From an uncultured delta proteobacterium (lineage in GTDB: Bacteria; Myxococcota_A; Polyangia; Polyangiales; Polyangiaceae), in the NCBI GenBank assembly GCA_963850305.1, contig CAWKKR010000008.1, positions 1,568,001 through 1,632,000 on the forward strand: a stretch of 64,000 nucleotides of DNA, given 5' to 3'. A model generated the notes under the pieces. That model searched no databases, was not told where the DNA came from, and saw only the letters and a list, made by a program, of their open reading frames with translations. The translations under genes were made by a program, and so were the position numbers. Below are positions 3,885-64,000 of the stretch, piece by piece; positions within the stretch are counted from its first letter, which is position 1; each line of letters opens with the position of its first letter.

Positions 3885-6800
3885 ATGAGCCTCGAGCGAT
3901 CCCGCACCTGGTGGCTCGTCTTCGTTGCGGTGCTGTGCGCCGCCCTCGGCGCGACACACGCCGCCCGCGCGGACCCGGACCCGGATCGGGACGCGGCTTC
4001 GGCGCCCGAGGCGCTGCCGGACCTGCATCCTGCGGCGGATCTCGGCACGCTTGCCGGGCGTTCGATCACGCGCATCGAGATCGTTACGCGAGGCGGGCGC
4101 TGGGCCGATCGGGTGTCGTTGCGGCGTGTGCGCGTCGGGGACCCCCTGAGCGGCGAAGTCGCGCGGAGAGCGTTGCACGAGCTGTCGGACACGGGCCGGT
4201 ATGCCGACCTCGTTGCCGAAGCAGAGCCGGACGGCGACGGGGCGGTGCTCCGGATCAGCGTCACGCCGAGGCGTATCGTGACCGCGACGCAGATAGTCGG
4301 CGGCACACTCGACGACGACGAGACCCTCCACGCGACCGGCATCGAGGCGGGCCGCGAGATCACGAGCGACGATCTCGCCAAGGGCGCCGCGCGGCTTCGC
4401 GCGTTCTACGCCGATCGAGGCTATCCGAAAGCCACTGCCGGCATCGACGCCATCGACACCGACGACCCGATGCAGGTCATCGCCGTGCTGCACGTGTCAC
4501 CGGGCGCGCCGCGTTCCATCGCTCGTCGCGTGCTTCGCGTCACGCCGTCGCCGTCACGGCGCCTCTCCTCGCTCGTCGACGACTACGCGGTTTCTGCCGG
4601 CGACCGCGCGGACGGCGATGCGCTCGCGCGCGCAGACGGAGACCTTCAGGACGCGCTGCGAAACAATGGCTGGGAGACCGCAGCCGTCGCGCATCGCCTG
4701 GAGGGAACGGGGCGAACCGCGGTGCTCTTCGTCGACGTCCGCGCCGGGCCCGAGGTCGAGATAAAGTTCGAGGGCAATCACCGCTTCGACGAGAGCGAGC
4801 TCACGGACGCACTCGATCTCGGAGACAACGAGGACCGAGCCCCCGGCACGCTCGCGGCCCGCATCGAAAAGTATTACGTGGACCGCGGGTTCCTGGACGT
4901 CCGGGTCACGCCGGAGCTCCGCGGCACGCCGAGCGACGCGAAGAACGTCCTCGTGCTCCACGTACGAGAGAACGAGATCGTCACCGTCATCCGGCGCGAA
5001 TATCCGTGCCTCACGGGAAAGCGCAAGGCGAGTGGGGTGGACGAGGAGATCGATAGCTTCCTCTCCGAGGCGTTGCCCGGGACGGGCATCATCGGTCCGG
5101 TGGATCCACGAGTCGTGGACTCGGTGCTCGGGCCGCGCAACCTGACGGGGTCGCGCGTCGCACCGCTGGAAACCAATCCGTGGCGGACCTACGTCGAGGA
5201 CGTCTACGACCGGGCCACGCGACATCTGCAAGAGCTCTATCGCTCCGAGGGATATCTGTCCGCGACGGTGGGGCCCGTGGCGCTCCTTCGCCGCCAGTGC
5301 AATCGACACTCGTCCGCCGGCAAATGCGTGCCCATAGGCGAGCTCATTCGACCGCTCGTTCAGTGTCCGCAAAGCGACACGGACCTGCCCGTCGCGGACC
5401 AGCCGCCGCCGACGCCGTGTGTCCCCGATCCGCGCCACGGGATCCGCTGCGAGTCGGGCGTCGTGCTCGAGATCCCCGTGAAGATTGGCCCGCGCGCGAT
5501 CTTGTGGGACGCCTCGTTCGAGGGCAACCGCGTGCTCGTGGAGTCCGATCTGGCGCGCATCGCGGATCTCGGCCTGGGCGAGCCAGTGTCGCAGATCGAA
5601 CTCGACCGAGCGCGCCGACGGTTGCTCGACGAGTACTCCGAGCGGGGGTTCGCCTTCGCGGACATCGAACAGCGTATCGAGCTCTCGCCGGATCACACGC
5701 GGGCCCGCGCGCGATTCATCATCAACGAGCGCGACCAAGTGAGGGTCCAGGACATCGTCGTTCGAGGCGCGCGACGGACGAACGAGGGGCTCATCTTCGC
5801 CCGCGTCGCGCTCGTCAAGGGAGGCCTCTATCGCCGCAGTCTCGTGCGGGCAACCGAGGAGCGGCTCGCCACCCTCGGCGTCTTCTCGAACGTCTCCGTG
5901 ACGCTCGAGGACCCCGAAGTTTACGCGAAGGAGAAGGTCGCCGTCGTCACCGTGCGCGAGCGGGCGTCCCAGTATCTGGACGTGCGCCTGGGCTTCAGCA
6001 CCGGCGACGGACCGCGCGTGACGTTCGAATACGGTCACCGGAACCTGGGCGACCGCGCCATCCGCTTGACGATCCGCGCGCAGCTCGGGATTCTTGCCGG
6101 ACTTTCTGATCTTCGACCCGACCGTGCGCGCTCACTTCCAGGCGCTGCCGCTGCAGCAGCGGCTGGAGCGGCAGGACACCGTTTCCGTCGAGTTACCCGA
6201 AATCGGGCTCGGTGCCCTGTTCCCGTTCGGCGTCGATCTCATCGACGTTCGCGACAACTCGCGCGACTTCGGCCTGACGAAGGACGCGGCGATCGTCACG
6301 CAGAGCTATCGACCGACGACGCGTTTCGTGACTCAGGTCGGCGGCTCCCTCGAGCGAAACGACGCCAAGATCTTCGCCGGAGAGACGATCGAACAGTACC
6401 TGGAAGCGAACCAGAGCTTCGGCCCGCGTCTGCGCGTGCCGGACGGCACGACCTTCGCGATCGCCGAGCGAGCGAGCGTGACCTGGGACCGTCGCGACAA
6501 TCCGTTCGACGCGACGCGCGGGACGTTTGCCTTCGCGAGCGTCGAGCATGTTCACGCGATCCCGATCGCGGAAAGCGAGAACACGCCGATCAGCGACTTC
6601 GTGCGACTCCAGAGCCGCATCGCCGGTTACATTCCGCTTGCCGACAACGGGCTCTCGCTCGCGCTCAGCTTCCGGTGGGGCCAGAACGTGCAACTCATCT
6701 CCGGCTCGAAGACATATCCGGATCGGCTGTTCTTCATGGGCGGAGTGGATTCGCTCCGCGGGTTTCTCCAGGAATCCTTGATTCCCGAGGACGTCGCGGA

Positions 6801-44975: not shown

Positions 44976-45043
44976 GTGTACTCCCGCGTTACGTCGCGCC
45001 GAGTCCAAGTGTTAGCATGGGGCAGGGGAGCGGTTTCATCGTA

Positions 45044-45252
45044 GGGGGTCTTGACCCCCGCGGCTCGCTTCGCGACCGCTCCCCCGCCGCCTTCGGCGGG
45101 CTCGCTTGGTTCAAGGGGGGCCTTGCCCCCCGCGGCTTGCTTCGCAACCGCTCCCCCCGCCGCCTTCGGCGTGCTCGCTTGGTTCAAGGGGGGCCTTGCC
45201 CCCCGCGGCTTGCTTCGCAACCGCTCCCCCCGCCGCCTTCGGCGGGCTCGCT
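45044..45252 (+). repeat. Three tandem ~72-73-bp palindromic units (BIME-like)
   Basis: Units start 45044, 45115, 45188; GGGGGGCCTTGCCCCCC-GCGGCTTGCTTCGCAACCGC-TCCCCC-CGCCGCCTTCGGCG, three hairpins each. Confidence 0.9.
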
Positions 45253-46459: not shown

Positions 46460-47160
46460 TCACGGCGTGGTGGTCGATCCACGCGCCCGACGGAGGTGAC
46501 CTCACGCCGTGTGAAGCGGGAATCACGGCCGACGGAGGTGTTCTCACGCTGTGTGAAGCGGGAATCACGGCCGACGGAGGTGTTCTCACGCTGTGTGAAG
46601 CGGGAATCACGGCCGACGGAGGCGTCCTCAACGGCGCGCGATCCACTTCTCACGGCCGACGGAGGTGACCTCACGCCGTGTGAAGCGGGAATCACGGCCG
46701 ACGGAGGTGTCCGCACGGCGCGTGAAGCGGGTATCGCGCTCGTGAGAACGCGTCCTCACGGCCGACGGAGGTGTCCTCGCGCCGTGTGAAGCGGGAATCA
46801 CGGCCGACGGAGGTGTCCGCACGGCGCGTGAAGCGGGTATCGCGGCCGTGAGAACGCGTCCTCACGGCCGACGGAGGCGTCCTCACGGCGCATGATCCAC
46901 TTATCACGGCCGACGGAGGTGTCGTCACGGCGCATGATCCACTCATCACGACCGACGGAGGTGTCCATCGCGACGCGTGATCCACTTATCACGGCGGACG
47001 GAGGTGTCGTCACGGCGCGTGATCCGCTTATCACGCCCGACGGAGGTGTCCTCACGGTGAGCGATCCACTTATCAGGACCGACGGAGGTGTCCTCACGGC
47101 GGACGGATATGTCCTCACGCTGCGTGATCCAGTTGTCGCGGCGGACGGACGCGTCCATCC
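46460..47160. repeat. Tandem array with 21-bp period (near-constant unit alternating with variable units)
   Basis: CACGGCCGACGGAGGTGTCCT alternates with CACGCCGTGTGAAGCGGGAAT or CACGGCGCATGATCCACTTAT variants, roughly 30 units, degenerate at both ends. Confidence 0.92.
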
Positions 47161-47349
47161 CGCGGTCGAGGGGCGGGTCGTCGCGACGTGTGAGGCGCCC
47201 CGGCGCCATGCGGGGGGATCGCGCCGTGATCGTTTGGTGGACGCCCGCGTCTGCCGAGACCTGACCTACGGTTCCTCGGGGAACCCCGCGAAGCTCCTTG
47301 TAGGAGGTCCGGACATGGAAGATGCTCGATGATCTTCCCCTGGGGCAAA

Positions 47350-48348
47350 GTGGGTCGTCGTTCACCAACCGAGTCCGTGGCGCGGATATACCGCGCGTTC
47401 CTGCGCCAGCGCACGTGGCCGCAGGCGGAGCTCGCGCGCGAGGTGGGCATCGGCGTTGCGGCGCTCCGGAAGCGGCTGGACGAGCTGACCACGCTCGGAA
47501 TGCCGCTCGAGCGGGAGGATGACCTACCGCAGGTCTACTGGAGCGTGCCCGCGACGTGGTTCCCCGACAGCGTCGCACTGGACAAGGACGAAGTCGCGGA
47601 TCTGCTACACGTGCTCTGGCACACGGCGCGGGGGCGGCGCCGCGACCGGCTCCTGCGCCTCGTGCTCGACGCTCGTCGTGATCGCGCGACCATCGCGGCG
47701 ACAGAATCCGCGATCGTGACGCACGAGGTATCGGAAGCGGAAGAGACGTTTCTCCCGATTTTGGAAGAGGCCATGACCGCGAACAGGCCCGTGCGCCTGC
47801 GATTCTACTCCACCGAGCGCGGCATCGTGGAGTCCAGGCACGCGTCGGTGCACCGCGTGGACGTCGGCCCCCCGACGCGACTCGTCGCGACGTGCCACCG
47901 GACGAACGAGCTCCGGTGGTTCCGCGTCGACAACATCGTCGATGTCAGCATCGACCGCGAAACGTCCTTCCGCGCCGCCAGCGACGAAGCTGTTCGTCGC
48001 TTCTGTGCGGACAGCATCGATGGGTTCAGGGGCGCTACCGAGACCGAGGAACACGCGTTCTTCGTGCGTAACCCCGAGGCGCGATGGGTCGCCAAGAATC
48101 TTCTCGCTCCGATGCGGGCAGTGGATGCCCCGGACGGAATTACGGTGTCCGTGACAACTGCCGGAGCGATGCGCGTCGCACGCTTCGTCGTCGGTCTTGG
48201 CGGCGCCGCTCGAGCGGAGAGCGCTCGACTCCGGACACTCGTCGAAGAGCTCGCACGGGGGGCGCTCCGCCGCTCGGCGCAACCTGGACGGCTCGCGAAG
48301 GCAGCCACGGGAATACCTGAACGACCGCGCAGACGCGCGAATAGATGA
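47350..48348 (+). CDS. WYL-domain transcriptional regulator (HTH-WYL-WCX); start GTG 47350 or ATG 47329
   Basis: N-terminal HTH (QAELAREVGIG..ALRKRLDEL); WYL-like RPVRLRFYS...LVATCHRTNELRWFRVDNI; C-terminal RFVVGLGGAA. Confidence 0.85.
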   Translation: MGRRSPTESVARIYRAFLRQRTWPQAELAREVGIGVAALRKRLDELTTLGMPLEREDDLPQVYWSVPATWFPDSVALDKDEVADLLHVLWHTARGRRRDRLLRLVLDARRDRATIAATESAIVTHEVSEAEETFLPILEEAMTANRPVRLRFYSTERGIVESRHASVHRVDVGPPTRLVATCHRTNELRWFRVDNIVDVSIDRETSFRAASDEAVRRFCADSIDGFRGATETEEHAFFVRNPEARWVAKNLLAPMRAVDAPDGITVSVTTAGAMRVARFVVGLGGAARAESARLRTLVEELARGALRRSAQPGRLAKAATGIPERPRRRANR

Positions 48349-48424: not shown

Positions 48425-49006
48425 CTACCGCGGAGGCACCGGCGTGGCCCACAGCGCGCCAACATCGAACTCTATGGCCTCGAACGGCACGGCGCGCACT
48501 GGTTCGTCTCCGCGAAACGTTTCGAGCAGGATCCAGCGGTGGTTCTCCAGTGCATACGTCTCGATGATCCGGACCGCGGGATCCACGATCCACGCGAAGC
48601 TCACGCCGGCCCGCGCATAGAGAGGCATCTTGTCGGCGCGATCGAACGCTGCGCTGGACGGCGACACGATCTCGCATATCCAGTCAGGTGGGAGATCGAA
48701 CCAAGCCGTTCGCGGCAGCTCGGGCATGCGCTCCACTCGCCATCCCGCCCAGTCCGGAACGAGGACATCGCCTCCCGGCAGGTGAAGCTCTGGCTCGAGC
48801 AGAATCCACCATCCGCCGGGTCCCCCGCGGCCGCGCTGGAACGGCGGCGACAGCTCTCCGCCGAGAGCCGACGCTGCGGCAGTGTGCAACGGCCCCGGCC
48901 GAGGGCTCGTGACAAGCTCGCCGGCTACGATCTCGGCGACGAGGTTCGACGGTACTGCCGCGAGATCCGCGTAGGTGGCGCGACGTGTGGCTCGGACGGA
49001 CGACAC
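48425..49006 (-). CDS. Uma2/DUF820-family putative endonuclease, copy 1
   Basis: RATYADL, AEIVAGEL..SPRP, GGPGGWWILLEPEL, PDWAGW, PDWICEIVSPS, DKMPLYA, WIVDP. Confidence 0.9.
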   Translation of the reverse strand: MSSVRATRRATYADLAAVPSNLVAEIVAGELVTSPRPGPLHTAAASALGGELSPPFQRGRGGPGGWWILLEPELHLPGGDVLVPDWAGWRVERMPELPRTAWFDLPPDWICEIVSPSSAAFDRADKMPLYARAGVSFAWIVDPAVRIIETYALENHRWILLETFRGDEPVRAVPFEAIEFDVGALWATPVPPR

Positions 49007-49093
49007 GAAGACAGGGTAGCAGCTCAAGGGAGGCGAGCCGGACCAGAGGGAGAAACGACGCGACGCTCCCACGGGGCGTCGGCGTGGTGGGGG

Positions 49094-49122
49094 TTGACGG
49101 TCCAGTCCCTCGTTGCTAGCTT
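49094..49122 (+). promoter_or_regulatory. Sigma70-like promoter facing the mini-array and cas3 operon
   Basis: TTGACG (49094-49099), 17-bp spacer, TAGCTT (49117-49122), with extended -10 TG at 49114-49115. Confidence 0.6.
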
Positions 49123-49151
49123 CCGCTCCCATAGATTGCAGACCCCTTAGA

Positions 49152-49176
49152 CCCCGGAGAGTCTTACGACTCAAAA
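49152..49176 (-). promoter_or_regulatory. Self-target site of the mini-array spacer, with TTT PAM
   Basis: Minus strand TTT-TGAGTCGTAAGACTCTCCGGGG versus spacer TGAGTCGTGAGACTCGCCGGGG (20/22). Confidence 0.75.
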
Positions 49177-49329
49177 CATCGGAAGCTGAAGGTTCACGTA
49201 GTCACTTCAGCTGGCGTGGATGCGATGCTGCTTCTGGAGTGGCGCCAGCTGAGCCTGCCAAGGCTCGCCACAGCAATCGTGAGGCGGATTGGGTTCGAGC
49301 GCCGCTAAAACTGTTGGTGCCCGCGGCGC

Positions 49330-49436
49330 TGCGGGGCGCTGCTCATCGCTCGGCCCGATTGAAGTTGAGTCGTGAGACTCGCCGGGGGCAACGTTCGGCG
49401 CTCTCCACCGCGTTCGCGCGGTGGCCTCGTTGAAGT
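49330..49436 (+). CRISPR. Mini-array: degenerate repeat, 35-nt spacer (49366-49400), near-perfect repeat (49401-49436); candidate CreR/CreA-like regulatory RNA
   Basis: Second repeat 34/36 identical to the main array repeat; first repeat retains 3' end GGCCCGATTGAAGT (11/14 versus GGCCCCGTTGAAGC). Confidence 0.8.
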
Positions 49437-49538
49437 GGCTCCGAATTCCGAGCAATGGGCAGCGCCGCGCTGCGCTGCCGACGCTCCGCCTGATCGTTTT
49501 GACCTTCCGCGACCGTCCTCCCTTGGCAGAGGTGACAC

Positions 49539-52166
49539 GTGAGCATTGAATTCGCAGCGGCCTTTCACGCCCCCCTCACCGGCAACCCGAGCTTCCCGTG
49601 GCAGAGGGCGCTCTTCAGAGCGGTTCATCCGGGGCAATCGGGAGCATCGATTTCCCGAGGCATGCGACATCCCGACGGGACTCGGCAAGACGTCCGTCAT
49701 CGCAGTCTGGCTCCTCGCGCTGGCGCATCACGCCGTGAGCGAAAGTGCGCGCAGTTTCCCGCGCCGCCTCGTGTACGTCGTGAATCGACGTACCGTCATG
49801 GATCAATCGACGCGCGAGGCGGAACGTCTTCGCGAGAAGCTTTCAACGGCTGGCGAGCTGCGTGACGTAGCTCGACGCTGGCGTCACTCTGCTCTTACGA
49901 CCCGTCGGGCTCCCCTCTCGCAATCAGCACGCTGCGGGGTGAGTTCGCTGACAACGCCGAATGGCGCGACGATCCGGCCCGCCCCGCGGTCATCGTTGGT
50001 ACCGTCGACATGATCGGAAGCCGGTTGCTGTTCGCGGCTAGGGCCGGCTTCAAGTCCGTCCCCTTCATGCTGGTTTCCTCGGGCAGGACGTATTGCTGGT
50101 ACACGACGAGGCGCATCTCGAGCCGGCGTTTCAGGCGCTCATCGAGGAAGTTAGGCGAGAACAGAGTCATTTCCCGTGGGAGCGGGACCGTTTCGCTGTG
50201 ACGGCGTTGTCCGCGACGGCTCGCACCGGCACGAGCTCCTTTTCACTCACGGCCTCGGATCTCGAGAACGATGTCGTACGGAAGAGATTTTACGCGAAGA
50301 AGGGGCTCCGCATGCACCCTCTCGCGGAAGGCAAGAAGCTCCCCGATGCGCTCGCCGAGCTCGCGAGAAACCCCGACTTCGACGGGCAGGCCGTCGTCGT
50401 CTTCATGCGGCGGGTGAAGGACGTCGAAGCCGTCCGTGCGGCGCTGGATGGATCACCATCGTCCACGGCAGTCCTCACGGGAACGTTGCGCGGGTTCGAG
50501 CGCGACCAATTGGCACAGACCAATGGCGTGTTCGCTCGGTTCATGCCACCGCACGACCGAGATCCGAGGTGCACACCGCAGTCTGGCACGGTCTTTCTGA
50601 TCTCGACGTCCGCTGGTGAGGTGGGAGTCAACCTTTCTGCGGATCATCTCGTCTGTGACCTCGCTCCGTTCGACAGCATGGTTCAGCGCTTTGGGCGGGT
50701 GAATCGTTTCGGCCACGGAAAGGCCAGCATCGACATCGTCGTCGACGAGAGCGCGGCCAGGGGAGACGACATGTTCGCCTCCTCCATCCAGAAAACGCGG
50801 GCGCTTCTCGCGCGCCTTCCGAGAGTCGGCACGTTCCGAGCGGCTCGATGCGAGCCCCGCAGCTCTGGGTGAGCTCCCGTACCTCGAACGATTGGCGGCA
50901 TTCTCGCCTCAACCCGAGATCCCTCGCGCGAGCGATGTCCTGTTCGACGCCTGGGCGCTGACCTCCATCCGCGACCTTCCCGGCAGACCTCCCGTTGCTG
51001 ATTATCTTCACGGAGAGGAAGAGTGGGAGCCTCCAGAGACGTACATCGCTTGGCGGCGAGAGGTCGAGTACGTCACGGGAGACCTTCTTGATGAGCACCC
51101 CCCGGACGAACTCCTGGAAGACTATCCGCTCAAGGCACATGAGCTTTTGCATGACCGGACCGAGCGTGTCATCGAGCAGCTTGCCAAGATCGCCAACCGC
51201 TTCCCTGACCAAACGGTCTGGGTGCTCGAAGAGAACGGCAGCGTCCATCAAAAGGCACTGACTGTCTGGTTGAGCGGCGACAAGAAAACGGCCATCGACC
51301 GGCTAGCGCGCCGAACGGTGGTGTTACCGCCCCGCGTCGGAGGCTTAAAGGAAGGTCTGCTGAACGGCGCGAGCGCCTTCGACGAGCAGCAGCAGTACGA
51401 TGTCGCGGACGAGTGGGGGGACGAATCCGGCAAGCGTCGAGTTCGGCGAAACGATCCGGCTCCGCAAAGCGGTATGCGATTGGTTCGGAGCATCGTACCC
51501 CTGGGGGACCCTGATGAGTCGGATGCGGAGGGCCGCGCGCCAGTGCTCGAGAGCTGGTACTGGTTCGTGAAGCCGCGCTTCGCCGATGACGACGGTTCGC
51601 GGACGGCGCGCGCGTCGGAGTCGCTCGAGGCGCATCTGGGAAAGGCTGGAAGATCTGCTGCTGCGATTGCCGCCCGACTGTTGAATCCTGATGAATCGAC
51701 TGCAGTGCGGCTCGCCGCCGAATGGCACGATCTCGGCAAGAACCGGAACCTTTGGCAGCGCTCGATCGGGAACCTTGGAACGGAGGTCTTCGCGAAGTCT
51801 GGGCCGGAGATGACTCCGCGAAACATCACGCGCTACCGGCACGAATTCGGCTCTTTGATCGATATTCGGTTCAGAAAAGAGTTCGTTGCCCTGCCTCGCG
51901 AACAACAAGACCTGATCCTTCACCTCGTCGCGGCGCATCACGGACGCGCCCGCCCACACTTCCCACTGGAAGAATCGTTCGATCCGGAGCACACGGACAG
52001 TGTGGCGCTGGAGACCGCTCGATCGGTCCCTCGGAGGTTCGCCACGCTGCAGGCGCGATACGGTCGCTGGGGTCTGGCCTACCTGGAGTCGCTCGTCAGG
52101 GCAGCCGATGCGCTCGCGTCTCAGGACATCGGCGGGTCGGACGCGGGCAGAGTGAAGGGCCAATGA
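49539..52166 (+). CDS. cas3: Type I-G (I-U) Cas3 helicase/nuclease with C-terminal HD domain (several frameshifts)
   Basis: FPWQ, IPTGLGKT, PRRLVYVVNRRTV, VGTVDMIGSRLLF, DEAHL, ALSAT, TSAGEVGVNL, QRFGRVNRFG; C-terminal HDLGK, RHEFGS, AAHHG, RAAD. Confidence 0.92.
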
Positions 52167-53047
52167 CCACCACCGGCCGATCCGAAGCATCGGTCCGCTG
52201 CGATCCGACCAATCCGGGCCAGTTTCTCGCTTGCTGCGGAATCCTGGAGCTTGCTCATCGCCGATTCGGCAGCGGAGCTACAGGCTGGTTCTCGACCGAC
52301 GGGCGGCGATTCTGCCTCGACGTGGGAGCGTCGAGCGATGCGCCGACACTACGGACGCTCCTGACAGAGCTGTGTTCCTGTGAGGTGACGAACACGATGA
52401 GCCCCGACGCGCTTCGCCGAAGGGCCGAGTTCGATGCGATGAACGGGCGCGAGAATCGAGGGCGCGGGAAGGGAAGACGAGAAGAAGGAGCTCGAATCAC
52501 TCTGGCGTGAATCACCTGTCATCTTCGGGGCACCATTCCACTTCACGGTCGACTGGCACCAGGACGACCGCGGTCGCGGTTCGACCTTCAAGACGTGGGC
52601 GGGGCAGCGGTCGATCATCGACATCGCCCGGGGTATGCACACCGCGGCGCGTGCCGCCCTCTCGGACATTGACACGATCGAGCAAATCCTCGGGGCAACG
52701 TCACGTGGCTCCGGGCTGCCGTTCAATTTCGACTCCGACCTGGGCGGTCAAGCGGCCCCGTTGGACGTGGGATTCAGCTTCGATCCTCTACCGACTATGT
52801 CCTTGGCCGCGCGTCCGGTGACCGAGCTCTGCGCGTTCATCGGGTTGCAACGCTTTCGCCCGGAGCGCGTCCGGAGGGAAATCGCTACCAGTATGCCCTG
52901 TGGTGGACCCCACTTCCCGCGGGCGTCGCCAGCGCGATGGCCTCGTGCTCTATCGATTCTCTGGAGCGCTCGCTCTTCGAGTTCCGGCTCTTGTACCGGA
53001 CCAAGTACCTGAAGAGTTTCTTGTCAGCAAAACCCGTCATGAGGTGA
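52163..53047 (+). CDS. cas8g2: Type I-G large subunit, small Cas8g2 (Cas8u2)-type (about two frameshifts)
   Basis: DPTNPGQFLACCGILELA, FKTWAGQ, LDVGFS, ELCAFIGLQRFRP; lies between cas3 and cas7. Confidence 0.8.
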
Positions 53048-53050
53048 CCA

Positions 53051-54118
53051 GTGGCTACGAAATTGAATAGTTACGACACATTCCTGAGCGACGGAGGGCC
53101 AGCGGCACTCGTCATTCGCGAACACCTGATGAGCGTGGAAGGCGCGGACGGCGTCCTGTTTCCGGCGACGTTCGCGGCCAGCGAAGACAAGACTTTCAAG
53201 GGCGGCTACAACATCGACAATCTCGGGAATGGGAAGAACGTCTGCCTGGTCGATAGCGTCGGCTCGCAGGCGAATCGGTTGGAGCCCATCTTCTCCACCG
53301 ACCCATACAAGAAGCTCGTTCCGCAAGTGGTCGTCAAAGCGGGGCCGAGGGGTGTCAACCTGCTAGACGCAGGACACCGCGCCGCGGATGCGGTGATTCG
53401 ATGCTCGACCCTTCAGGAGGAACTGCAAGCTGCCTTCAGGGCGGCGATGCGCGGGGACGCCGCGCCGCTCGCCAAGATCGCACCGACGTCGCTCGTGTTC
53501 GGGGTGTGGGATTCTCGAGACACTCAAGCCAAGCTGCCCCGCCTGATCGCCTCGACGATACGAGCGTTCAATGTTCAGCGTCTTACTCGCTCGGCACAAT
53601 ACGTGCCGGCAACTGAGTACATAGCCGACGAGTTGCTGGAGGACACCGACGACAAGAAGATGAAGGACGCCTACTCTGCGAAGGGATTCGTGCACGTCCC
53701 GGCGTCTGCCACGCCGGGAGGCGTCGTGGCGGAGGCCGTCCGTCGGGATGCGTCGCTGCACCTTGCTGCGTTGCGGCTGCTCGGTGCAGGGAAGGATCCG
53801 GAAAAGTCGCTCGCGCTCAAGCGATACGTTTTTGGTCTCGCCTTGACCGCGTTCACGTTTTCGCCGGCGGGGTATCTCCGTCAGGGGTGCAATCTCGTAG
53901 CAGATCCTGAAAAAAAGCGTGACTTCAGGGTCGTCTTCAACGACGGACGGAGGGAACCAAGCGGCATCACCCACGATGATGCGATCTCCTATGCGGTGCT
54001 CGTTGCAGAGGCTTTCGGCGTCGGTGAGGATCGAGAGGTAGCTTTCGAGGTGCAACGCGCGAAAGCTGACCTCAGCGGAGAAAAAGTAAAGAAGCCAAAG
54101 AGCAAGGGAAAGCCGTGA
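53051..54118 (+). CDS. cas7: Type I-G Cas7 (Csb1)
   Basis: LFPATFA, LVDSVGSQANRLE, GHRAADA, APTSLVFGVWDSR, YLRQGCNL. Confidence 0.92.
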   Translation: MATKLNSYDTFLSDGGPAALVIREHLMSVEGADGVLFPATFAASEDKTFKGGYNIDNLGNGKNVCLVDSVGSQANRLEPIFSTDPYKKLVPQVVVKAGPRGVNLLDAGHRAADAVIRCSTLQEELQAAFRAAMRGDAAPLAKIAPTSLVFGVWDSRDTQAKLPRLIASTIRAFNVQRLTRSAQYVPATEYIADELLEDTDDKKMKDAYSAKGFVHVPASATPGGVVAEAVRRDASLHLAALRLLGAGKDPEKSLALKRYVFGLALTAFTFSPAGYLRQGCNLVADPEKKRDFRVVFNDGRREPSGITHDDAISYAVLVAEAFGVGEDREVAFEVQRAKADLSGEKVKKPKSKGKP

Positions 54119-55704
54119 CATCGGGTGCCCAGCTTTGCGTGACGGTGCGCTTTCTGCAGCCCACGTTTCACGGGCGCGCGGAGGGGGGGCGAGGCGAATG
54201 GCCGCCATCCCCCCTTCGCCTGTTCCAAGCACTCGTGGCCGCAGCGGCGCGCTTGCAGCCGACTGGCTTCGACAATCGAACCCGGGAAGCGTTTCGGTGG
54301 CTGGAGCGGTGCGCGGCCCCGACGATCGTCGCGCCCGTCGCACAGGAGACGACTGGGATGAGGCTCTCGGTGCCGAACAATGCGATGGACATCGTCGCGC
54401 GCGCGTGGTGTCGAGGAAACGATTCGGAGACGGGTGACGCGGACCCTCGGACGCATCGGACCATGAAGACCGTGCGTCCGTACTGGCTTCACGGCGCGCG
54501 GGTCCGCTACATCTGGTCGTCGAACGAGGTGTCGCTAACCGCGGACGTAGCCGATCGCGTGGTTCGTGTTGCTCGCCATCTGACGCATCTTGGCTGGGGC
54601 ATGGATCAGGTGGTGGGTGATGCCTCGGTCATGAGCGCCGTCGAGCCTCCGGCAGCCGATGAGGACGAATGGCGCCCGTCGAGCGACATCTCTAACAGTG
54701 GTCTCCGGACTCCCGTTAGAGGCACCTTGGACGACCTCGAGGAGCATCACCACGCCTTCATGAATCGAATTGCGCCCGCCGGCTTTTCGGCGCCACCTCC
54801 CATCTCCGCATACAAGGTATTCGAGTATCGACGAGCATCCGATCCAAAGGCACGTCCGGTCGCGGTGTTTTCCATTCTCCGTCCCGGTGGCATGGCCTTT
54901 CGTGCGTTCGATCCTGCACGGAAGGCGCTCACGGTAGCTGGAATGCTTCGCCACACCGCCGAGGAGGCAGCCATTGCTTCCGGGTGGCCCGCTGCCAAGG
55001 TAGCTGGCTTCGTTATGGGGCACAGTGAACGCGGAGTGTCGACGCCAGTCGGTATCGAGCGTTTCGCGTATCTACCCCTGCCCAGCATCGAGTCCCGCGG
55101 TGGCGGCAAACAAACCGTCGGAAGCATCCGCCGCGTTGCCATCACTTCGTTCGCTGAAGACGTGAGTGCTGAGGTGGCGTGGGCGCGTCGCGGAATCTCC
55201 GGACGAGACCTCTTCGACGAGGACACGGGCGAGGCGGTTGCGTCCCTCGTGCTTCTCCAGAACGCCGACGCGGCGACGCAGCGTTACTTCGTCCCGGCGA
55301 GCACCTGGACTAGTGTCACTCCCGTTGTCCTTCCCGGATACGACGATCCGGATCACCTCCGCCAGAAGGCAAGCCGGAGCACGACGCCTGATCAACGGAA
55401 ACGATACCTGGAACGCCTGTCGGGCAGGATTGATCACCTCATCCGAAAGGCGCTTCGTCAATTTGGACTATCCGAGCTCTTGGCACAGCATGCCGACCTC
55501 GAATGGCGGAAGGTCGGGTTCCTCGCCGGGGTCGGGCACGCGGATCGATACGGAGTCCCCGATCATCTGCGCAGGTTTTTAGGTACCACGTGCGACTCCG
55601 GTTTCATGATTCCATGGGCAAGCCGATCTCGGTGCCGGGTCCGTTGTGTGTTGGCGGCGGTCGATACGCCGGAGTCGGCCTTTTCGTGGGAGACGATGGC
55701 CTGA
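54115..55704 (+). CDS. csb2: Type I-G Cas5/Cas6 fusion (Csb2); frameshift near 55578
   Basis: EWPPSPLRLFQALVA, HLGWGMD, WTSVTPVVLPG; Gly-rich Cas6 loop GPLCVGGGRYAGVGLF in the shifted frame. Confidence 0.9.
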   Translation: MTSGAQLCVTVRFLQPTFHGRAEGGRGEWPPSPLRLFQALVAAAARLQPTGFDNRTREAFRWLERCAAPTIVAPVAQETTGMRLSVPNNAMDIVARAWCRGNDSETGDADPRTHRTMKTVRPYWLHGARVRYIWSSNEVSLTADVADRVVRVARHLTHLGWGMDQVVGDASVMSAVEPPAADEDEWRPSSDISNSGLRTPVRGTLDDLEEHHHAFMNRIAPAGFSAPPPISAYKVFEYRRASDPKARPVAVFSILRPGGMAFRAFDPARKALTVAGMLRHTAEEAAIASGWPAAKVAGFVMGHSERGVSTPVGIERFAYLPLPSIESRGGGKQTVGSIRRVAITSFAEDVSAEVAWARRGISGRDLFDEDTGEAVASLVLLQNADAATQRYFVPASTWTSVTPVVLPGYDDPDHLRQKASRSTTPDQRKRYLERLSGRIDHLIRKALRQFGLSELLAQHADLEWRKVGFLAGVGHADRYGVPDHLRRFLGTTCDSGFMIPWASRSRCRVRCVLAAVDTPESAFSWETMA

Positions 55705-56164: not shown

Positions 56165-56192
56165 CTCTCCACCGCGTTCGCGCGGTGGCCCC
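56165..56192 (+). CRISPR. Orphan truncated CRISPR repeat (first 28 of 36 nt)
   Basis: CTCTCCACCGCGTTCGCGCGGTGGCCCC exact match; lacks the final GTTGAAGC. Confidence 0.85.
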
Positions 56193-56283: not shown

Positions 56284-56856
56284 TCACCCCCAAATCCGCC
56301 CCAACCTCAGCTCTATCGCGTCGAACGGCTCCGCTCTCACGACGTCCTCCTCGCCATGAAGCCCGACCACCGACCAGCGTCCGCTTTCGAGGCGGAGCAC
56401 TTCCAGCGTTTTGGCGAGTGGATCGATCAGCCAGGCGTGTGGCACTCCAACCTGAGCGTAGAGGGGGAGCTTCTTGATGCGATCGAAGCGCGCGGTCGAC
56501 GGCGACAGGATTCCGCAAACCCAATTCGGGCAGATCTCGATGAACGGGCCGTTGGGGGCGATTGGCATCCGCTCGCGGCGCCACCCGGCGAGGTCGGGCA
56601 CGACGATGTTGCCGTCGAGGTGGACCTCCGGTTCGTCGAGGATCCACCATCCGCCGGGTCCACCATCGCCGAACTGGAACGGCGGCAGGAGGCTTCCGCC
56701 GACCGCCGAGCCCGCGACGGAGTGGCGCCCGGCTGGGCGTGGGCTCGCGTGCAGCTCGCCGCCGACGATCTCCCCGATGACGTCGTCGCCGAGCGCGACG
56801 AGATCGTCGTACGTGGCGTTGCGTCGAGCGGGTTCCACCGCGCGGAAGGATATCAC
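56284..56856 (-). CDS. Uma2/DUF820-family putative endonuclease, copy 2
   Basis: NATYDDL, EIVGGEL, GGPGGWWILDEPEV, PDLAGWRRERMP, KLPLYA, WLIDP; the usual CE(I/V)LSPS reads CGILSPS. Confidence 0.88.
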   Translation of the reverse strand: MISFRAVEPARRNATYDDLVALGDDVIGEIVGGELHASPRPAGRHSVAGSAVGGSLLPPFQFGDGGPGGWWILDEPEVHLDGNIVVPDLAGWRRERMPIAPNGPFIEICPNWVCGILSPSTARFDRIKKLPLYAQVGVPHAWLIDPLAKTLEVLRLESGRWSVVGLHGEEDVVRAEPFDAIELRLGRIWG

Positions 56857-56861
56857 CTTTC

Positions 56862-58817
56862 ATGACCGAGAGCCCTGCGTCTAGTTTGCCGGCCGCTCCG
56901 TCTCCCCCACCCGAAGAGGTGGCCCGCGCGAAACACCTCCCGCTCCCCCTTCTGAAGACCGACAGCCCCGCGCTCGTCCCCGCGCGGATGATCAACGAGC
57001 TCTTCTACTGCGAGCGGCTCATGTATCTCGAGTGGGCGCAGAGCGAGTTCGCCGACAACGCGTTCACCGTCGATGGTCGATCGGTCCATCGACGCGCCGA
57101 CGAAGCCAAACCCCTGCCGGAGCCGGCACGGCGCTCGTCGAAGAGGAAGGATTCGGCGAAGGCTGACACGAACGACGGCGAGGCCGACACGGGTGAATCT
57201 GCTCCGTCAGTCGACGGCCCTCCCTATACTGCACGGTCCGTCTGGCTCTCGTCAGAGCGACTGGGCATCACCGCGAAGATCGACGTCGTGGAAGGGGAGG
57301 GCGGGCGCGTCGTGCCCATCGAGTACAAGCGAGGGAGCAAGCCTGAAATACCCGAGGGCGCGTACCTGCCCGAACGCGCTCAGTTGTGCGCGCAAGTACT
57401 GCTCCTCCGAGACCACGGATACCAATGCGACGAGGCCGCCATCTACTTCGCCGCGGATCGGCGGCGCGTGTCGATCGCGATCGACGAGGCGCTCGTGGCG
57501 CTCACGCTCGACGCCGTTCGGCGCGCCCGAGACGTTGTGCAGGCTGGCGAACTACCTCCGCCCCTCGTCGACAGTCCGAAATGCGACGGCTGCTCGCTCG
57601 TCGGGATTTGCCTCCCCGACGAAACGAACCTCCTCCGGGCGCTGGAGGGAGTCGAGGCGCCGCAGGAAGCGCCCGAAGATCCCGAAGCGCCCGTCCTGGA
57701 GCCGGCGCTCGTCGAGTTGTACGGGCCGCTCGAGAAGGATCCGTGGGACCTTGCCGGGCCGGAGCCTCAACCAATTCCGGCGGAGCTCCGTCGATTGCAT
57801 CCGGCGCGCGATGACAAGCTACCGGTCTACGTTCAGGCGCAGGGCGGGCGGATAACGCTCAGCGGAGAACGTCTCTCGATCTGGACCAAGGACGACGGCG
57901 CGATCGAAGCTCGGCTCGGAAACACTTCCCAGATTTCGCTCTTCGGCAATATTCAGATCACTCCGCAGGCGCTTCGCACCGTGCTCGAGCGTGGGATCCC
58001 GGTTTCACTCTTTACTTACGGGGGATGGTTCATCGGGCGCGCCGTGGGGCACGACTCGAAGAACGTCGAGCTGCGCCTTGCGCAGTACGCGGGCGCGACC
58101 GATCCCGCCACGTCGCTCCGATTGGCGCGAGGATTCGTCGTATCGAAGATCTTGAACTGTCGAACCCTGCTGCGTCGCAACCACGAGAAAGCCAGCGCGG
58201 TCGTGCTCTCGGAACTCAAGCAGCTTGCGCGCAAAGCAGCGGAAGCAGATTCGCTGGGCGAGCTCCTGGGACTGGAGGGCACCGCGGCGCGGGCCTACTT
58301 CTCGGAGTTCACGGGCATGTTGAAGCCGGAGGATAGCGAGACCGCGGTGTTCGACCTGGACGGACGGAATCGGCGACCACCCAAGGACCCGATCAATGCG
58401 CTCCTGTCGTTCGCCTATTCCCTGCTCTCCAAGGACTTCGCGCTGACCCTGCACGCGGTCGGGCTCGATCCGCTCCTCGGCTTCTACCACCAACCGCGAT
58501 TCGGCCGCCCCGCGCTCGCGCTCGACATGATGGAGGAGTTCCGGCCACTGGTTGCCGACTCCGTGGTGATCGGCGTCGTGAACAACGGCGTCGTTCGGGC
58601 CAGCGACTTCGTTCGGTCCCCAGCTGGCACGGCGCTGAAGCCGGCGGCGCGCCGGCGTCTGATCCTCGCCTATGAACGGCGCATGGACCAGCTCACGACG
58701 CACCCGACGTTCGGCTACCGAATCAGCTACCGACGCGTGCTCGAGGTTCAGGCAAGATTGCTCGGCCGCATGCTGCTCGGCGAATTGAAAGAATACCCGG
58801 CGTTCCGCACGCGGTGA
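56862..58817 (+). CDS. cas1: Cas4-Cas1 fusion (type I-G adaptation module)
   Basis: Cas4: YCER, KIDVVE, PIEYKRG, KCDGCSLVGIC; Cas1: LGLEGTAARAYF, RNRRPPKDPINALLSFAY, GFYH, LALDMMEEFRP. Confidence 0.96.
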   Translation: MTESPASSLPAAPSPPPEEVARAKHLPLPLLKTDSPALVPARMINELFYCERLMYLEWAQSEFADNAFTVDGRSVHRRADEAKPLPEPARRSSKRKDSAKADTNDGEADTGESAPSVDGPPYTARSVWLSSERLGITAKIDVVEGEGGRVVPIEYKRGSKPEIPEGAYLPERAQLCAQVLLLRDHGYQCDEAAIYFAADRRRVSIAIDEALVALTLDAVRRARDVVQAGELPPPLVDSPKCDGCSLVGICLPDETNLLRALEGVEAPQEAPEDPEAPVLEPALVELYGPLEKDPWDLAGPEPQPIPAELRRLHPARDDKLPVYVQAQGGRITLSGERLSIWTKDDGAIEARLGNTSQISLFGNIQITPQALRTVLERGIPVSLFTYGGWFIGRAVGHDSKNVELRLAQYAGATDPATSLRLARGFVVSKILNCRTLLRRNHEKASAVVLSELKQLARKAAEADSLGELLGLEGTAARAYFSEFTGMLKPEDSETAVFDLDGRNRRPPKDPINALLSFAYSLLSKDFALTLHAVGLDPLLGFYHQPRFGRPALALDMMEEFRPLVADSVVIGVVNNGVVRASDFVRSPAGTALKPAARRRLILAYERRMDQLTTHPTFGYRISYRRVLEVQARLLGRMLLGELKEYPAFRTR

Positions 58818-58832
58818 CGTCTCGGAGGAACG

Positions 58833-59123
58833 ATGCGCCAAACGTACATCGTCAGCTACGACATCTCGAACCCGAAGCGCTTGCGCAAGGTGTTCCAGCT
58901 CATGCGCGGGTACGGCGATCATCTTCAGCTTTCTGTCTTTCAGTGCGAGCTGAACCACCGAGAGCTCATCGAGCTTCGCGCGCGTCTGTCCGACATCATC
59001 CACATTGCAGAAGACCAGGTGATGTTCGTGGATGTCGGCCCCGTCGAGGGCCGCGGCAGCACATCCATCTCGGCGATCGGGCGTCCCTACCTGTACCCTG
59101 AGCGCCACGCGATCGTCGCGTGA
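58833..59123 (+). CDS. cas2: CRISPR-associated endoribonuclease Cas2
   Basis: YIVSYDISNPKRLRKV, HLQLSVFQC, EDQV; GGAGG RBS. Confidence 0.96.
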   Translation: MRQTYIVSYDISNPKRLRKVFQLMRGYGDHLQLSVFQCELNHRELIELRARLSDIIHIAEDQVMFVDVGPVEGRGSTSISAIGRPYLYPERHAIVA

Positions 59124-59355: not shown

Positions 59356-60438
59356 CTCTCCACCGCGTTCGCGCGGTGGCCCCGTTGAAGCCGCAGCGAT
59401 ACTTGCGGTATGCAGTTCTCGCGATCCGTCGCTCTCCACCGCGTTCGCGCGGTGGCCCCGTTGAAGCGACCGCTGCGTCGGTGCCGATCGATCGGCGATC
59501 CATTCGCTCTCCACCGCGTTCGCGCGGTGGCCCCGTTGAAGCTCGCATCGCAGCCGTCGTCGACTTCGAGGATCGATGCTGCGCGCTCTCCACCGCGTTC
59601 GCGCGGTGGCCCCGTTGAAGCCTGCGCCGACGACACGTCTTGCAGCGTGCGTCGACATCCTCTCCACCGCGTTCGCGCGGTGGCCCCGTTGAAGCCGAGT
59701 CCGAGCGCGACGCTGGCTCGGCAGAGATGTCGACTCTCCACCGCGTTCGCGCGGTGGCCCCGTTGAAGCCTACGTGCCGCCGCCGATCCATTCCGCGATG
59801 TCCGACGAAGCTACTCTCCACCGCGTTCGCGCGGTGGCCCCGTTGAAGCCGACGCTTGTCATGCAGCGTCGGCTCCGCGGCCTCCGGCCGCCTCTCCACC
59901 GCGTTCGCGCGGTGGCCCCGTTGAAGCCACACTGAGCCAGCAGTTGGTCCGCGTCTGCGCGAGCGCTCTCCACCGCGTTCGCGCGGTGGCCCCGTTGAAG
60001 CTCAGAGGCACGCGAGCTCGATCGTGGCCTGAGCATGCAGCTCTCCACCGCGTTCGCGCGGTGGCCCCGTTGAAGCGTCGGCGACGTGCGCGAGATGCGT
60101 GCGCCATCACGGCTCTCCACCGCGTTCGCGCGGTGGCCCCGTTGAAGCCCGCCAGCCGATGTCCGCAGCGATCGACGGCGCCTGACTCTCCACCGCGTTC
60201 GCGCGGTGGCCCCGTTGAAGCGTGTAGCTCGCGTGCGCGAGCAGCCGCTCGCGAGGATCTCGCCTCTCCACCGCGTTCGCGCGGTGGCCCCGTTGAAGCC
60301 CGGACGCTCTGCGCCGCGTCGGCGGTCGCTGACGTACTCTCCACCGCGTTCGCGCGGTGGCCCCGTTGAAGCTCCACATGCCGGTCTGGGCGACGTGCTC
60401 GTCACATCTGCCTCTCCACCGCGTTCGCGCGGTGGCCC
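59356..60438 (+). CRISPR. CRISPR array: 14 full 36-nt repeats plus a truncated terminal repeat (27 nt); 14 spacers of 36-44 nt
   Basis: Repeat CTCTCCACCGCGTTCGCGCGGTGGCCCCGTTGAAGC (8-bp stem, TTCG loop) starting at 59356, 59432, 59507, 59586, 59660, 59734, 59814, 59892, 59966, 60041, 60113, 60186, 60264, 60337, 60412. Confidence 0.98.
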
Positions 60439-60564
60439 TACGCCGCCATCGTCGTAGCCTGTGCCCCCAAGACGGCGGTGTGGACGGAATTTCTTGCCGT
60501 GCGACATGTGCAGCGTGAGCCGGTGGGCTCGTCCGCAACGGACGCACACAATCCGGAGGCACGC

Positions 60565-61405
60565 ATGCTCACTCTGCACGACAAGATGGAACAGGATCTC
60601 GAACTTGCCGGCTACGCCAAGCGAACCCGTCAGGCGTATCTCGCATCCATCCGCGACTTGGAGCGGTTCCACGGCCGCTCGGGGGACCGATTGGGTCAGG
60701 AAGAGATCCGGCGTTGGGTTCGCCACCTCACCGGCCAGGGACGAAGTCCGGAGCGGCTCCGCAAGCACTTTGCGGCGCTCAAGTTCCTCTACGCTCGCAC
60801 CCTGGGACGCCCTGCGCTGACTGCCTTTCTCGCTTGGCCCACTGCGCGGCAACGAACGCCCGTCGTTCTCAGTCCTCACGAAGTCGTCGCACTGTTGGGC
60901 GCGATCCGGTCGCCGAAGTACCGTGTGTTCTTTTCGTTGGTCTACGGCACCGGAATGCGCCTGTCCGAAGCGTGTCGACTCGAAACATCCGACATCGACG
61001 CGCAACGCGGCGTGATTCACGTGCGCCACGCGAAGGGTGGGCGCGACCGCTTCGTGATGCTGTCGCCGCAGCTCCTTGGGTCGTTGAGGGCGTACTGGCG
61101 TTTCGCGCGGCCGCCCGCGCCGTACCTGTTCACCGCTCGAACCGGGAGGCCGATCCATCCCGAGGTTGCCCGCAACGCCATGACCGCCGCCGCGAAGGCG
61201 GCCGGCCTGGCAAAGCGAGTGACGCCTCACGTACTTGCGCCACAGCTTCGCCACACATCTCCTCGAGCGGGGTGTCGACATTCGAGTCATCCAGGTGCTG
61301 CTCGGGCACATGAGTATTCGGACCACGGCGCGTTACACGCGCGTGTCGACCGGGATGATCGCGGACACCGTCAGCCCCTTGGATCTGCTCCCTCGCACCG
61401 GATAG
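60565..61405 (+). CDS. Tyrosine recombinase/integrase with N-terminal SAM-like domain (frameshift near 61237)
   Basis: [48 protein letters not shown]; resembles integrases usually paired with IS91-family transposases. Confidence 0.88.
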
Positions 61406-61478
61406 CAGCCGGCCGATTGCGTCCTTGGTTCGTCCGAGCCCACCCGCGGGAGCCCAACGCAATGAACATGAACGTAGC

Positions 61479-61620
61479 CTCTACGACGTCGAGGTCCCGA
61501 CCATCAACTACCACCTGAAGAAGGTGTTCGAGGACAAGGAGTTCACCATCAAGGGCTTCGCGATGGACGACGAGCGCCCGAAGCGCGGCGGCTCGGTCCT
61601 GAGCGATCGCTACTTCGAAG
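61479..61620 (+). pseudogene. RhuM-family protein fragment with internal deletion
   Basis: LYDVEVPTINYHLKKVFED joined directly to EFTIKGFAMDDER..RGG...YFE. Confidence 0.65.
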
Positions 61621-63092: not shown

Positions 63093-63662
63093 TCACGTCG
63101 CCACGTCGGCCCAGAGAGTCGACAGATCGATTTCGATCGCGTCGAACGGAACGGCGCGAACCCTGGCATCGTCCCGGAAAGCGACGACGCGCGCCCACCC
63201 GTCCGGGCCGAGCCGCAAGACTTCGAGGAGCTTCTGATCGGGGTTCACCAGCCACACGAACGAGACCGCCTCGCGCGCGTAGACGCCGAGCTTGTCGGTC
63301 CGATCGCTCTTCTCCGTCGACGCCGACAGCACCTCGCAGACCCAATCTGGCGCGAGCGTGAGATACGGTTCGCGTGGAACCTCCGCCAGCCGGCTCCGGC
63401 GCCAGCCGCCGAGGTCGGGTACGAGAATGTCGGCTCCCAGATGCAGCTCTGGTCCGTCCAGGATGATCCATCCACCCGGACCGCCGCGGCCGCGCTTGAA
63501 GGGAGGCCCGAGCTCTTCTCCGAGTGCGCTTGCGGCGGCGGCATGCGCCAGCGCCGGACGGGGGCTGAGGCGCAGCTCGCCGTTCACGATCTCCGCGACA
63601 AGGTGGCGAGGCGTCGCAAGGACGTCAGCGTAGGTCGCGATGTGTCGAGCTGGCCGGGACAC
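63093..63662 (-). CDS. Uma2/DUF820-family putative endonuclease, copy 3
   Basis: IATYADV, AEIVNGEL, GGPGGWIIL, PDLGGW, PDWVCEVLS, DKLGVYA, WLVNP. Confidence 0.9.
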   Translation of the reverse strand: MSRPARHIATYADVLATPRHLVAEIVNGELRLSPRPALAHAAAASALGEELGPPFKRGRGGPGGWIILDGPELHLGADILVPDLGGWRRSRLAEVPREPYLTLAPDWVCEVLSASTEKSDRTDKLGVYAREAVSFVWLVNPDQKLLEVLRLGPDGWARVVAFRDDARVRAVPFDAIEIDLSTLWADVAT

Positions 63663-64000
63663 CCTGCGAACATTAGCGCGAAGCGGCGGCGGCCAAGGAA
63701 GCCAAAGGCCGGGCCGGGACGCGACATAACGCCCGAACCGCGAAACAGCCGCTATTCTCGTTCGGCGACTGGAGCGCCCCCAAGCGGATAAAGATGGGGG
63801 CGCACCGGAGGGACGAGCGCGTCGGGAGGGGTTGCCGGCGCCGGGCCAGGTTGCTGGCCCCGGGACGAAGGTGCAGCCGCGCCTGCGCATCGGGGTGACG
63901 GGCGCGGCGGGAACGACCAGCGGCCGCCAGCGCTTTCAGGTGAAGCTGGTCGCGGCAGAGCCTCGCCCAAGTTCGCCGCTTCGCGGCGAGGATGCTACCG

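Follow-up and report, generated by a model that had tools for sequence, protein, structure and literature searches.

Upstream of the type I-G cas genes in the window (the whole 64,000-nucleotide stretch analysed here) lies a degenerate mini-CRISPR whose spacer is very probably a selected Cascade guide for a site at 49152..49173, beside a predicted promoter. Judging by its sequence, the guide would work like CreR/CreA, and it seems rather likely that it is a type I-G regulatory guide of this kind, matured through a split repeat whose two stem arms lie on either side of it. The locus comprises the following features.

47329..48348, plus strand: WYL-domain gene (Pfam PF13280), likewise upstream of the locus in L001, the closest relative found.
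49094..49122, plus strand: predicted sigma-70-type promoter, with the -35 hexamer at 49094-49099, 17 nt of spacing and the -10 hexamer at 49117-49122.
49135..49308, plus strand: small conserved ORF, read from an ATT over 57 codons; candidate cargo or toxin.
49152..49173, minus strand: target (protospacer), 20/22 to guide positions 1-22.
49174..49176, minus strand: PAM, TTT (TTC in L001).
49325..49353, plus strand: psi-R1 arm, putative replacement of the repeat stem's 3' arm; its 19-nt core, 49335-49353, is identical in L001.
49354..49365, plus strand: 4-nt linker (49354-49357) and 8-nt 5' handle, with a predicted Csb2 cut between 49357 and 49358.
49366..49400, plus strand: guide, 35 nt, with pairing confined to the first ~22-24 nt.
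49401..49436, plus strand: psi-R2, a near-canonical repeat with an intact 8-bp hairpin and a predicted cut between 49428 and 49429.
49448..49476, plus strand: partner arm, putative substitute for the absent 5' arm of psi-R1, within the cas3 leader.

A sequence-only reading of this region had described a mini-CRISPR upstream of cas3, with an 8-nt handle at 49358-49365, a spacer at 49366-49400 and a second repeat 34/36 identical to that of the main array, and had these coordinates right throughout. The unit lies outside the main array and retains its 5' handle, as CreR and mini-arrays do. psi-R2 folds with z = -2.56 and shows one compensatory pair relative to L001; the first repeat-like 36-mer, psi-R1, matches the array repeat at only 16/36 positions. 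The reported match was reproduced: 20 of spacer positions 1-22, all but 9 and 16, agree with 49173-49152 of the minus strand, with TTT 5' of position 1, and 18/22 was not surpassed in any of 2000 dinucleotide-shuffled versions of the 1.6 kb around it. The invoked TTN PAM also agrees with the accessible text of Shangguan et al. (PMC9638904), which gives type I-G a TTN PAM, an 8-nt handle and a 5+1 base flip by Cas7; a partial, seed-anchored self match beside the subtype's PAM is a further trait of CreR and mini-arrays. In the 6.26-Mb genome this target is the guide's best non-self match (the runner-up reaches 18/22 and lacks a TTN) and the sole TTN-anchored site with a score of at least 9.

The promoter hexamers proposed earlier are present, and the -35 hexamer, which the target adjoins, is kept in L001 amid diverged flanks, but together they amount to 8/12 of the consensus, below the threshold of a promoter scanner, which called 0 sites. 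Transcription would start near 49129-49131, and the strand targeted by the guide is the non-template strand. Repression of this promoter by the guide is quite likely, and the cas genes are probably driven by it. Target positions 2-15 (49160-49173) form a palindrome that is kept in L001 by paired changes at positions 3 and 14 and could double as an operator, for instance for the neighbouring WYL protein.

L001, whose Cas7 is 83% identical, carries the same promoter-target-mini-array cassette. Spacer-target covariation in related I-G loci, which the sequence-only reading had suggested looking for, is evident here: window and L001 differ at 6/22 guide positions and 7 target positions, the PAM stays TTN, and four changes (positions 3, 8, 14 and 20) are mirrored base for base in guide and target (p 0.00085). 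A DNA search for further orthologues of the exact cassette found it in 1/30 relatives, and searches of 150 and 400 genomes found only one close Cas7 relative.

Comparable guides occur more widely in type I-G. Of 142 loci entered into our scan, 131 had a cas3 start, and removal of 17 near-duplicates gave 114 loci (L042-L053, L055, L063-L070 and L084 were left out as short or duplicate). Guides were found in 17/114 of these and in 2/48 held-out loci, that is, 19 guides, a count in which kin are not independent and L054 is borderline; two of the 17 came from the structure scan described below. With a guide score in which TT was mandatory and each sixth position was disregarded, 14 loci reached at least 11, compared with 0/694 array spacers scoring at least 10. 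With no PAM or position rule at all, the best match lay beside a TTN for 15/21 upstream standalone handle sites, as against 41/694 array spacers. No TTN target for the standalone full repeats of L107 and L138 turned up in the locus DNA searched.

The mismatches in these guides are concentrated at particular positions. Across the 19 guides, 28/38 cells at positions 6 and 12 are mismatched, compared with 19/247 at the other positions from 1 to 15; this is the pattern of the 5+1 flip of I-G Cas7 (PMC9638904, accessible text), and points to a DNA R-loop in Cascade. The window guide's own mismatches, at 9 and 16, fall outside the flipped positions. Protospacer position 12 is A in 14/19 loci and the guide base there is C in 10/19, with no such bias in array spacers. 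The L001 changes and the 6/12 pattern show guide-target pairing conserved in relatives, as for CreR and mini-arrays, and together with the PAM bias they support the earlier proposal of a Cascade guide aimed at a promoter region.

Most targets in the 19-guide loci lie on or next to promoter-like hexamers, and guide and protospacer are on the same strand in 8/19. The gene directly behind the target, ahead of the cas genes, resembles an ECF sigma factor in L155, L023, L037 and L036; in L030 it is cas3 itself. In L111 the sigma-factor place is taken by a 170-aa ORF with no Pfam match; a single guide there matches two TTC-flanked sites, 680 and 644 nt upstream of cas3 and separated by 36 nt, and the weaker of the two covers a perfect -35 hexamer. 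In L115, a Cas7g-like ORF (5138-5731) lies behind the target, upstream of cas3.

With cas3g, cas8g, cas7g, csb2, a cas4/cas1 fusion, cas2 and a 36-nt hairpin repeat, the window locus belongs to type I-G. Its genes and main array are as follows.

49539..52166, plus strand: cas3g, in four reading-frame pieces in the assembly.
52163..53047, plus strand: cas8g2, in three frame pieces; the L001 orthologue matches TIGR04106.
53051..54118, plus strand: cas7g, intact (TIGR02570).
54115..55704, plus strand: csb2, with the final ~40 codons out of frame relative to L001.
56862..59123, plus strand: cas4g/cas1g fusion and cas2, intact.
59356..60439, plus strand: main CRISPR array, 14 perfect repeats and a decayed terminal one, with spacers of 36-44 nt.

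The autorepression reading had overlooked that the effector genes are frameshifted, and is incomplete in this respect. Relative to L001, where cas3, cas8g, csb2 and also cas7 are intact, nine indels of 1-2 nt are spread over the window's cas3, cas8g and csb2. These three genes hold 6 frame switches in ~6.1 kb, compared with 5 in 79.6 kb of 63 other orthologues from a same-genus genome, a density ~16-fold above the rest of the genome. Conserved columns, however, are changed at only 5/222 positions in Cas3, 2/99 in Cas7 and 2/76 in Csb2; this lack of excess means that the breaks are either very recent or assembly errors, and we lean slightly towards a local assembly error over a very recent inactivation. 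The circuit is somewhat more likely than not to be still working in this very genome, and our conclusions on mechanism rest on the lineage, independent of the activity of the window copy.

The surroundings of the operon hold several further elements. An exact copy of repeat positions 1-28 (hairpin and 4-nt linker, up to the predicted cut, with no handle) lies at 56165-56192, within a ~600-nt stretch that is absent from L001 and that also holds a nucleotidyltransferase-like minus-strand ORF. Just past the terminal repeat is a tyrosine recombinase gene (60478-61518), integron-integrase-like though below all NCBIfam cut-offs, and after it comes a nucleotidyltransferase gene. The CRISPR locus is both flanked and interrupted by three related nuclease genes of the Uma2 type, all on the minus strand (48425-49009, ~56284-56856 and 63093-63890), the middle one recognised from similarity and its L001 orthologue. 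Upstream of the WYL gene are tandem repeats of a 21-nt unit (46464-47155) and 73-nt palindromic repeats (45009-45252).

The promoter had been described as pointing at the mini-array and cas3; the first gene beneath it is, instead of cas3, the small conserved ORF, which overlaps the target such that the target falls within its first codons. The L001 orthologue has 65 codons and an ATG at the predicted transcription start; the window ORF lacks an ATG, and its GTG aligns with an internal ATG of L001. The two peptides are 48% identical over 50 aa. Past the target, synonymous divergence is 0.61 (0.63 in cas7), dN/dS is 0.38 and the indels are of 3, 6 and 3 nt; the frame is the best-scoring of six (permutation p 0.0012 by score, 0.024 by identity). 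Judged by these comparisons, the ORF is somewhat more apt to be translated than not. A 90% protein set restricted to lengths of 35-114 yielded no candidate homologue, Atlas matches stayed under 0.9, and among 301 family genomes E values below 0.001 were obtained only in the own genome and one same-genus genome. A profile search returned a single match, a repetitive 776-aa protein that we judged to be due to chance.

This ORF is possibly a CreT/CreP-like cargo, and the guide might then mainly silence it (or its RNA) as the toxin of a CreTA-like addiction module, with cas repression secondary and release upon loss or inhibition of Cascade. The place of the target, inside the first codons of an ORF whose sequence identity, dN/dS and frame-keeping indels speak for its conservation in L001, suits such a module, as does the order of promoter, target, small gene, mini-array and cas gene, which resembles CreTA/CrePA in the accessible text of 10.1101/2024.01.05.574328; the C-terminus of the peptide is a hydrophobic and then basic helix, both by sequence and in a low-confidence model (pLDDT 59). 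Yet the ORF comprises two sequences with no homologues in the sets searched, no fold match for the peptide model and no ATG in the window, and its toxicity is, from sequence, doubtful. If the effector frameshifts were real, moreover, the cell would live without Cascade, which a live toxin should forbid, and elsewhere the target is followed by a sigma-factor-like gene (L155, L023, L037 and L036) or by cas3 (L030). We regard an addiction module as unlikely, and return to a guide that chiefly represses the promoter of its own operon.

Such autorepression leaves unexplained how a first repeat without a hairpin is cut. Cleavage by Csb2 falls 4 nt 3' of the base of the repeat hairpin to which it binds (PMC9638904, accessible text); psi-R1 has no hairpin of its own, and the canonical stem-loop 4 nt before the handle is absent. 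Two non-coding blocks, immediately ahead of the handle and immediately behind psi-R2, are nearly unchanged between window and L001 and are mutually complementary, with 26 bp between 49325-49353 and 49448-49476 that are all retained in both genomes. The duplex scores above 1000/1000 shuffles in the window and in L001 (p <= 0.001), with a pairing probability of 0.98. It stops exactly 4 nt before the handle without extending into the linker, its score collapses when the anchor is shifted 1-4 nt inward, and its end mimics the base of the repeat stem, with C-G pairs, four unpaired bases and then the handle. Covariation inside the duplex is thin (24/26 pairs are invariant and one shows a double change; the shuffle control was not exceeded, 120/500), meaning that the weight of the argument rests on unrelated loci.

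Among hairpin-less handle sites, a downstream partner arm scoring at least 24, our threshold, was found at 7/11 target-bearing sites compared with 1/31 controls. Two of the seven are uninformative, since the L054 partner is simply a near-canonical second repeat's 5' arm and that in L155 belongs to a near-complete first repeat, leaving 5/7 informative; partners in L021, L033, L121 and L161 scored below 24. The lone control with a partner, L036, turned out to possess a target of its own beyond the original search range, flanked by TTC and mismatched at 6, 12 and 18. A scan on structure alone returned 6/1593 handle-like sites (the window, L001, L017, L115, L036 and L111), all with a TTN-flanked best match; four of the six were known when the threshold was set, and L036 and L111 were new. 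Applied to 162 sites in the 48 held-out loci, where the flank was only ~1.5 kb, the same duplex test added no unit and produced a single false hit, within cas3.

In L036, L111 and L115 the partner starts 39-41 nt after the handle, in the place of the next repeat's 5' arm, and there is no second repeat; L017 resembles them, with its partner at 50 nt. These four are pure permuted units, in DNA without a direct repeat. In L037 and L040, the 3' arm of one repeat is still able to pair with the 5' arm of the next, and a likely origin would be such inter-repeat arm pairing in a palindromic array, whose outer halves were lost to leave a permuted unit. A second guide, formed by the psi-R2 handle and the cas3 leader, was considered and rejected: its seed differs from L001 by a 3-nt indel and its best TTN sites score 9, equal to a control spacer. 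An Rfam search gave one chance-level match (E 0.47, far below the gathering score), and viral contigs held 0 matches to the handle plus guide and no relative of Cas3g.

The long-range duplex is, in our view, likely to be a Csb2 cut site. The guide could also act as proposed with a duplex that serves another end, namely a tracrRNA-like cut by RNase III or the stabilisation or attenuation of the transcript, the 5' end arising otherwise. A duplex of 19-26 bp is long enough as an RNase III substrate, and the stems in L115, L036 and L111, with 16-23 pairs, far exceed the 8-bp repeat stem; the exact end of the window duplex 4 nt before the handle, its C-G start like that of the repeat stem, and the partner 39-41 nt past the handle in L036, L111 and L115, where the next 5' arm would be, nevertheless make this improbable. 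With somewhat less assurance than for the cut site, we favour the broader view that type I-G has repeatedly evolved a circularly permuted repeat, in which stem arms flank the guide and Csb2 cuts the rebuilt stem; in the window the duplex would tie maturation to transcription of the cas3 leader, and the guide would turn a Cas3-containing effector into a repressor of both its operon and a small cargo gene.

An RNA-RNA switch, in which guide and target pair in the leader as inverted repeats without Cascade, is very improbable: the two are indeed opposite in orientation on the same predicted transcript, and their mean pairing probability is 0.19 in L001, but it is 0.0 in the window, the TTN PAM and 6/12 mismatches can be understood only in terms of a DNA R-loop in Cascade, and in the 8/19 loci with guide and protospacer on the same strand such pairing could not form. 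Equally improbable or slightly more so is that the unit is a relic, the decayed end of an array with an old spacer whose self-targeting has been tolerated since the effector genes broke, a reading that the ~16-fold excess of frameshifts in cas3, cas8g and csb2 would suit but that, for the lineage, is already largely refuted by the same unit beside intact cas3, cas8g, cas7 and csb2 in L001, by the mirrored changes and by the lack of excess change at conserved columns of the window Cas proteins.

We propose that the split-repeat guide acts as follows. One transcript would run from ~49130 through the small ORF and mini-array into cas3, and the psi-R1 and partner arms, whose pairing is predicted in two genomes, would rebuild a stem base 4 nt before the handle. 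Csb2 would then cut between 49357 and 49358 and again in psi-R2, releasing a 71-nt crRNA-like RNA (49358-49428); in the pure form (L036, L111, L115 and L017), a single cut would yield a two-stranded crRNA mimic with a 5' handle and a Csb2-bound stem at its 3' end. Cascade, probably with Cas3, would bind the TTN-flanked site ~22-45 nt downstream of the start, where pairing that ends at ~22-24 nt should, by analogy with other subtypes, leave the DNA occupied and not destroyed, damping transcription. Through this loop the guide would limit its own expression along with that of the small ORF and the cas genes, and repression would be released when Cascade is scarce, occupied with other crRNAs or blocked. 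In the accessible text of PMC9638904, stable DNA binding by I-G Cascade needs Cas3, which nicks at R-loop position 8, so that in this subtype binding cannot simply be taken to be harmless.

That crRNA-like guides can mediate autorepression is established; for type I-G it has only been listed so far, and there it raises a real question, as this Cascade cannot hold DNA without the Cas3 nuclease. From the 19 natural guides, the pairing length that presumably permits binding without cutting is ~17-22 nt. The split repeat, if true, is a different route to guide production; its units appear to repeat-based scans as lone handles and are probably undercounted, and it may offer a design for type I guides that are recombination-proof or mature conditionally.

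We compared the window with known systems through the accessible portions of the papers cited here. Liu et al. (10.1101/2023.03.10.532045) place I-U, as I-G was formerly called, on their list of creA-like elements, with experimental tests in I-B, I-E and V-A only. Their CreR shares with the window a degenerate mini-CRISPR, in which psi-R1 keeps the 8-nt handle and psi-R2 the 3' part, and a partial match to a PAM-flanked site beside a cas promoter; a partner arm past the guide and a Cas3-requiring repressor are not described in that accessible text. Shmakov et al. (PMC10120712) count mini-arrays in 4% of 235 I-G loci (Table 1), and the part of their paper available describes targets for I-B, I-D, I-E and I-F1, not I-G. 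Like the I-G guides, these mini-arrays are two-repeat units with seed- and PAM-matched promoter targets and a mismatch at every sixth position; in the window, by contrast, the decayed repeat is the upstream one, and the fully permuted units, having no second repeat, would show in such a survey as single repeat units.

CreTA and CrePA (10.1101/2024.01.05.574328, PMC9458426 and 10.64898/2026.06.02.729485) resemble the window, as far as their available text goes, in a repressed promoter that drives a small gene beside the mini-array and in a strongly diverged psi-R1. They differ in that the window ORF has no known relative and is a candidate toxin, and in that the haloarchaeal repeats lack structure, in contrast to the hairpin bound by I-G Csb2. 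With I-G crRNA processing (PMC9638904) the window shares the 8-nt handle, the cut 4 nt 3' of the stem base, the TTN PAM and the 5+1 flip, but the stem described there is a local hairpin in one repeat, whereas the window's stem arms stand on either side of the guide. As with the tracrRNA anti-repeat of types II and V (PMC9458426), a second strand pairs with part of the repeat for maturation; unlike tracrRNA, the window's partner is in cis and imitates the 5' arm of the repeat itself, with cutting predicted to fall to the Cas6-like Csb2 instead of RNase III.

Beyond the I-U/I-G listings, the literature searched, which missed most subscription papers, gave no description of a split or permuted repeat and, Fig. 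S7 of Liu et al. and most supplements of Shmakov et al. aside, no account of I-G repression by such guides. As far as these sources extend, the promoter-directed I-G guide is of a known kind, that of CreR/CreA, listed for I-U by Liu et al. (10.1101/2023.03.10.532045), and the split repeat is the new part.
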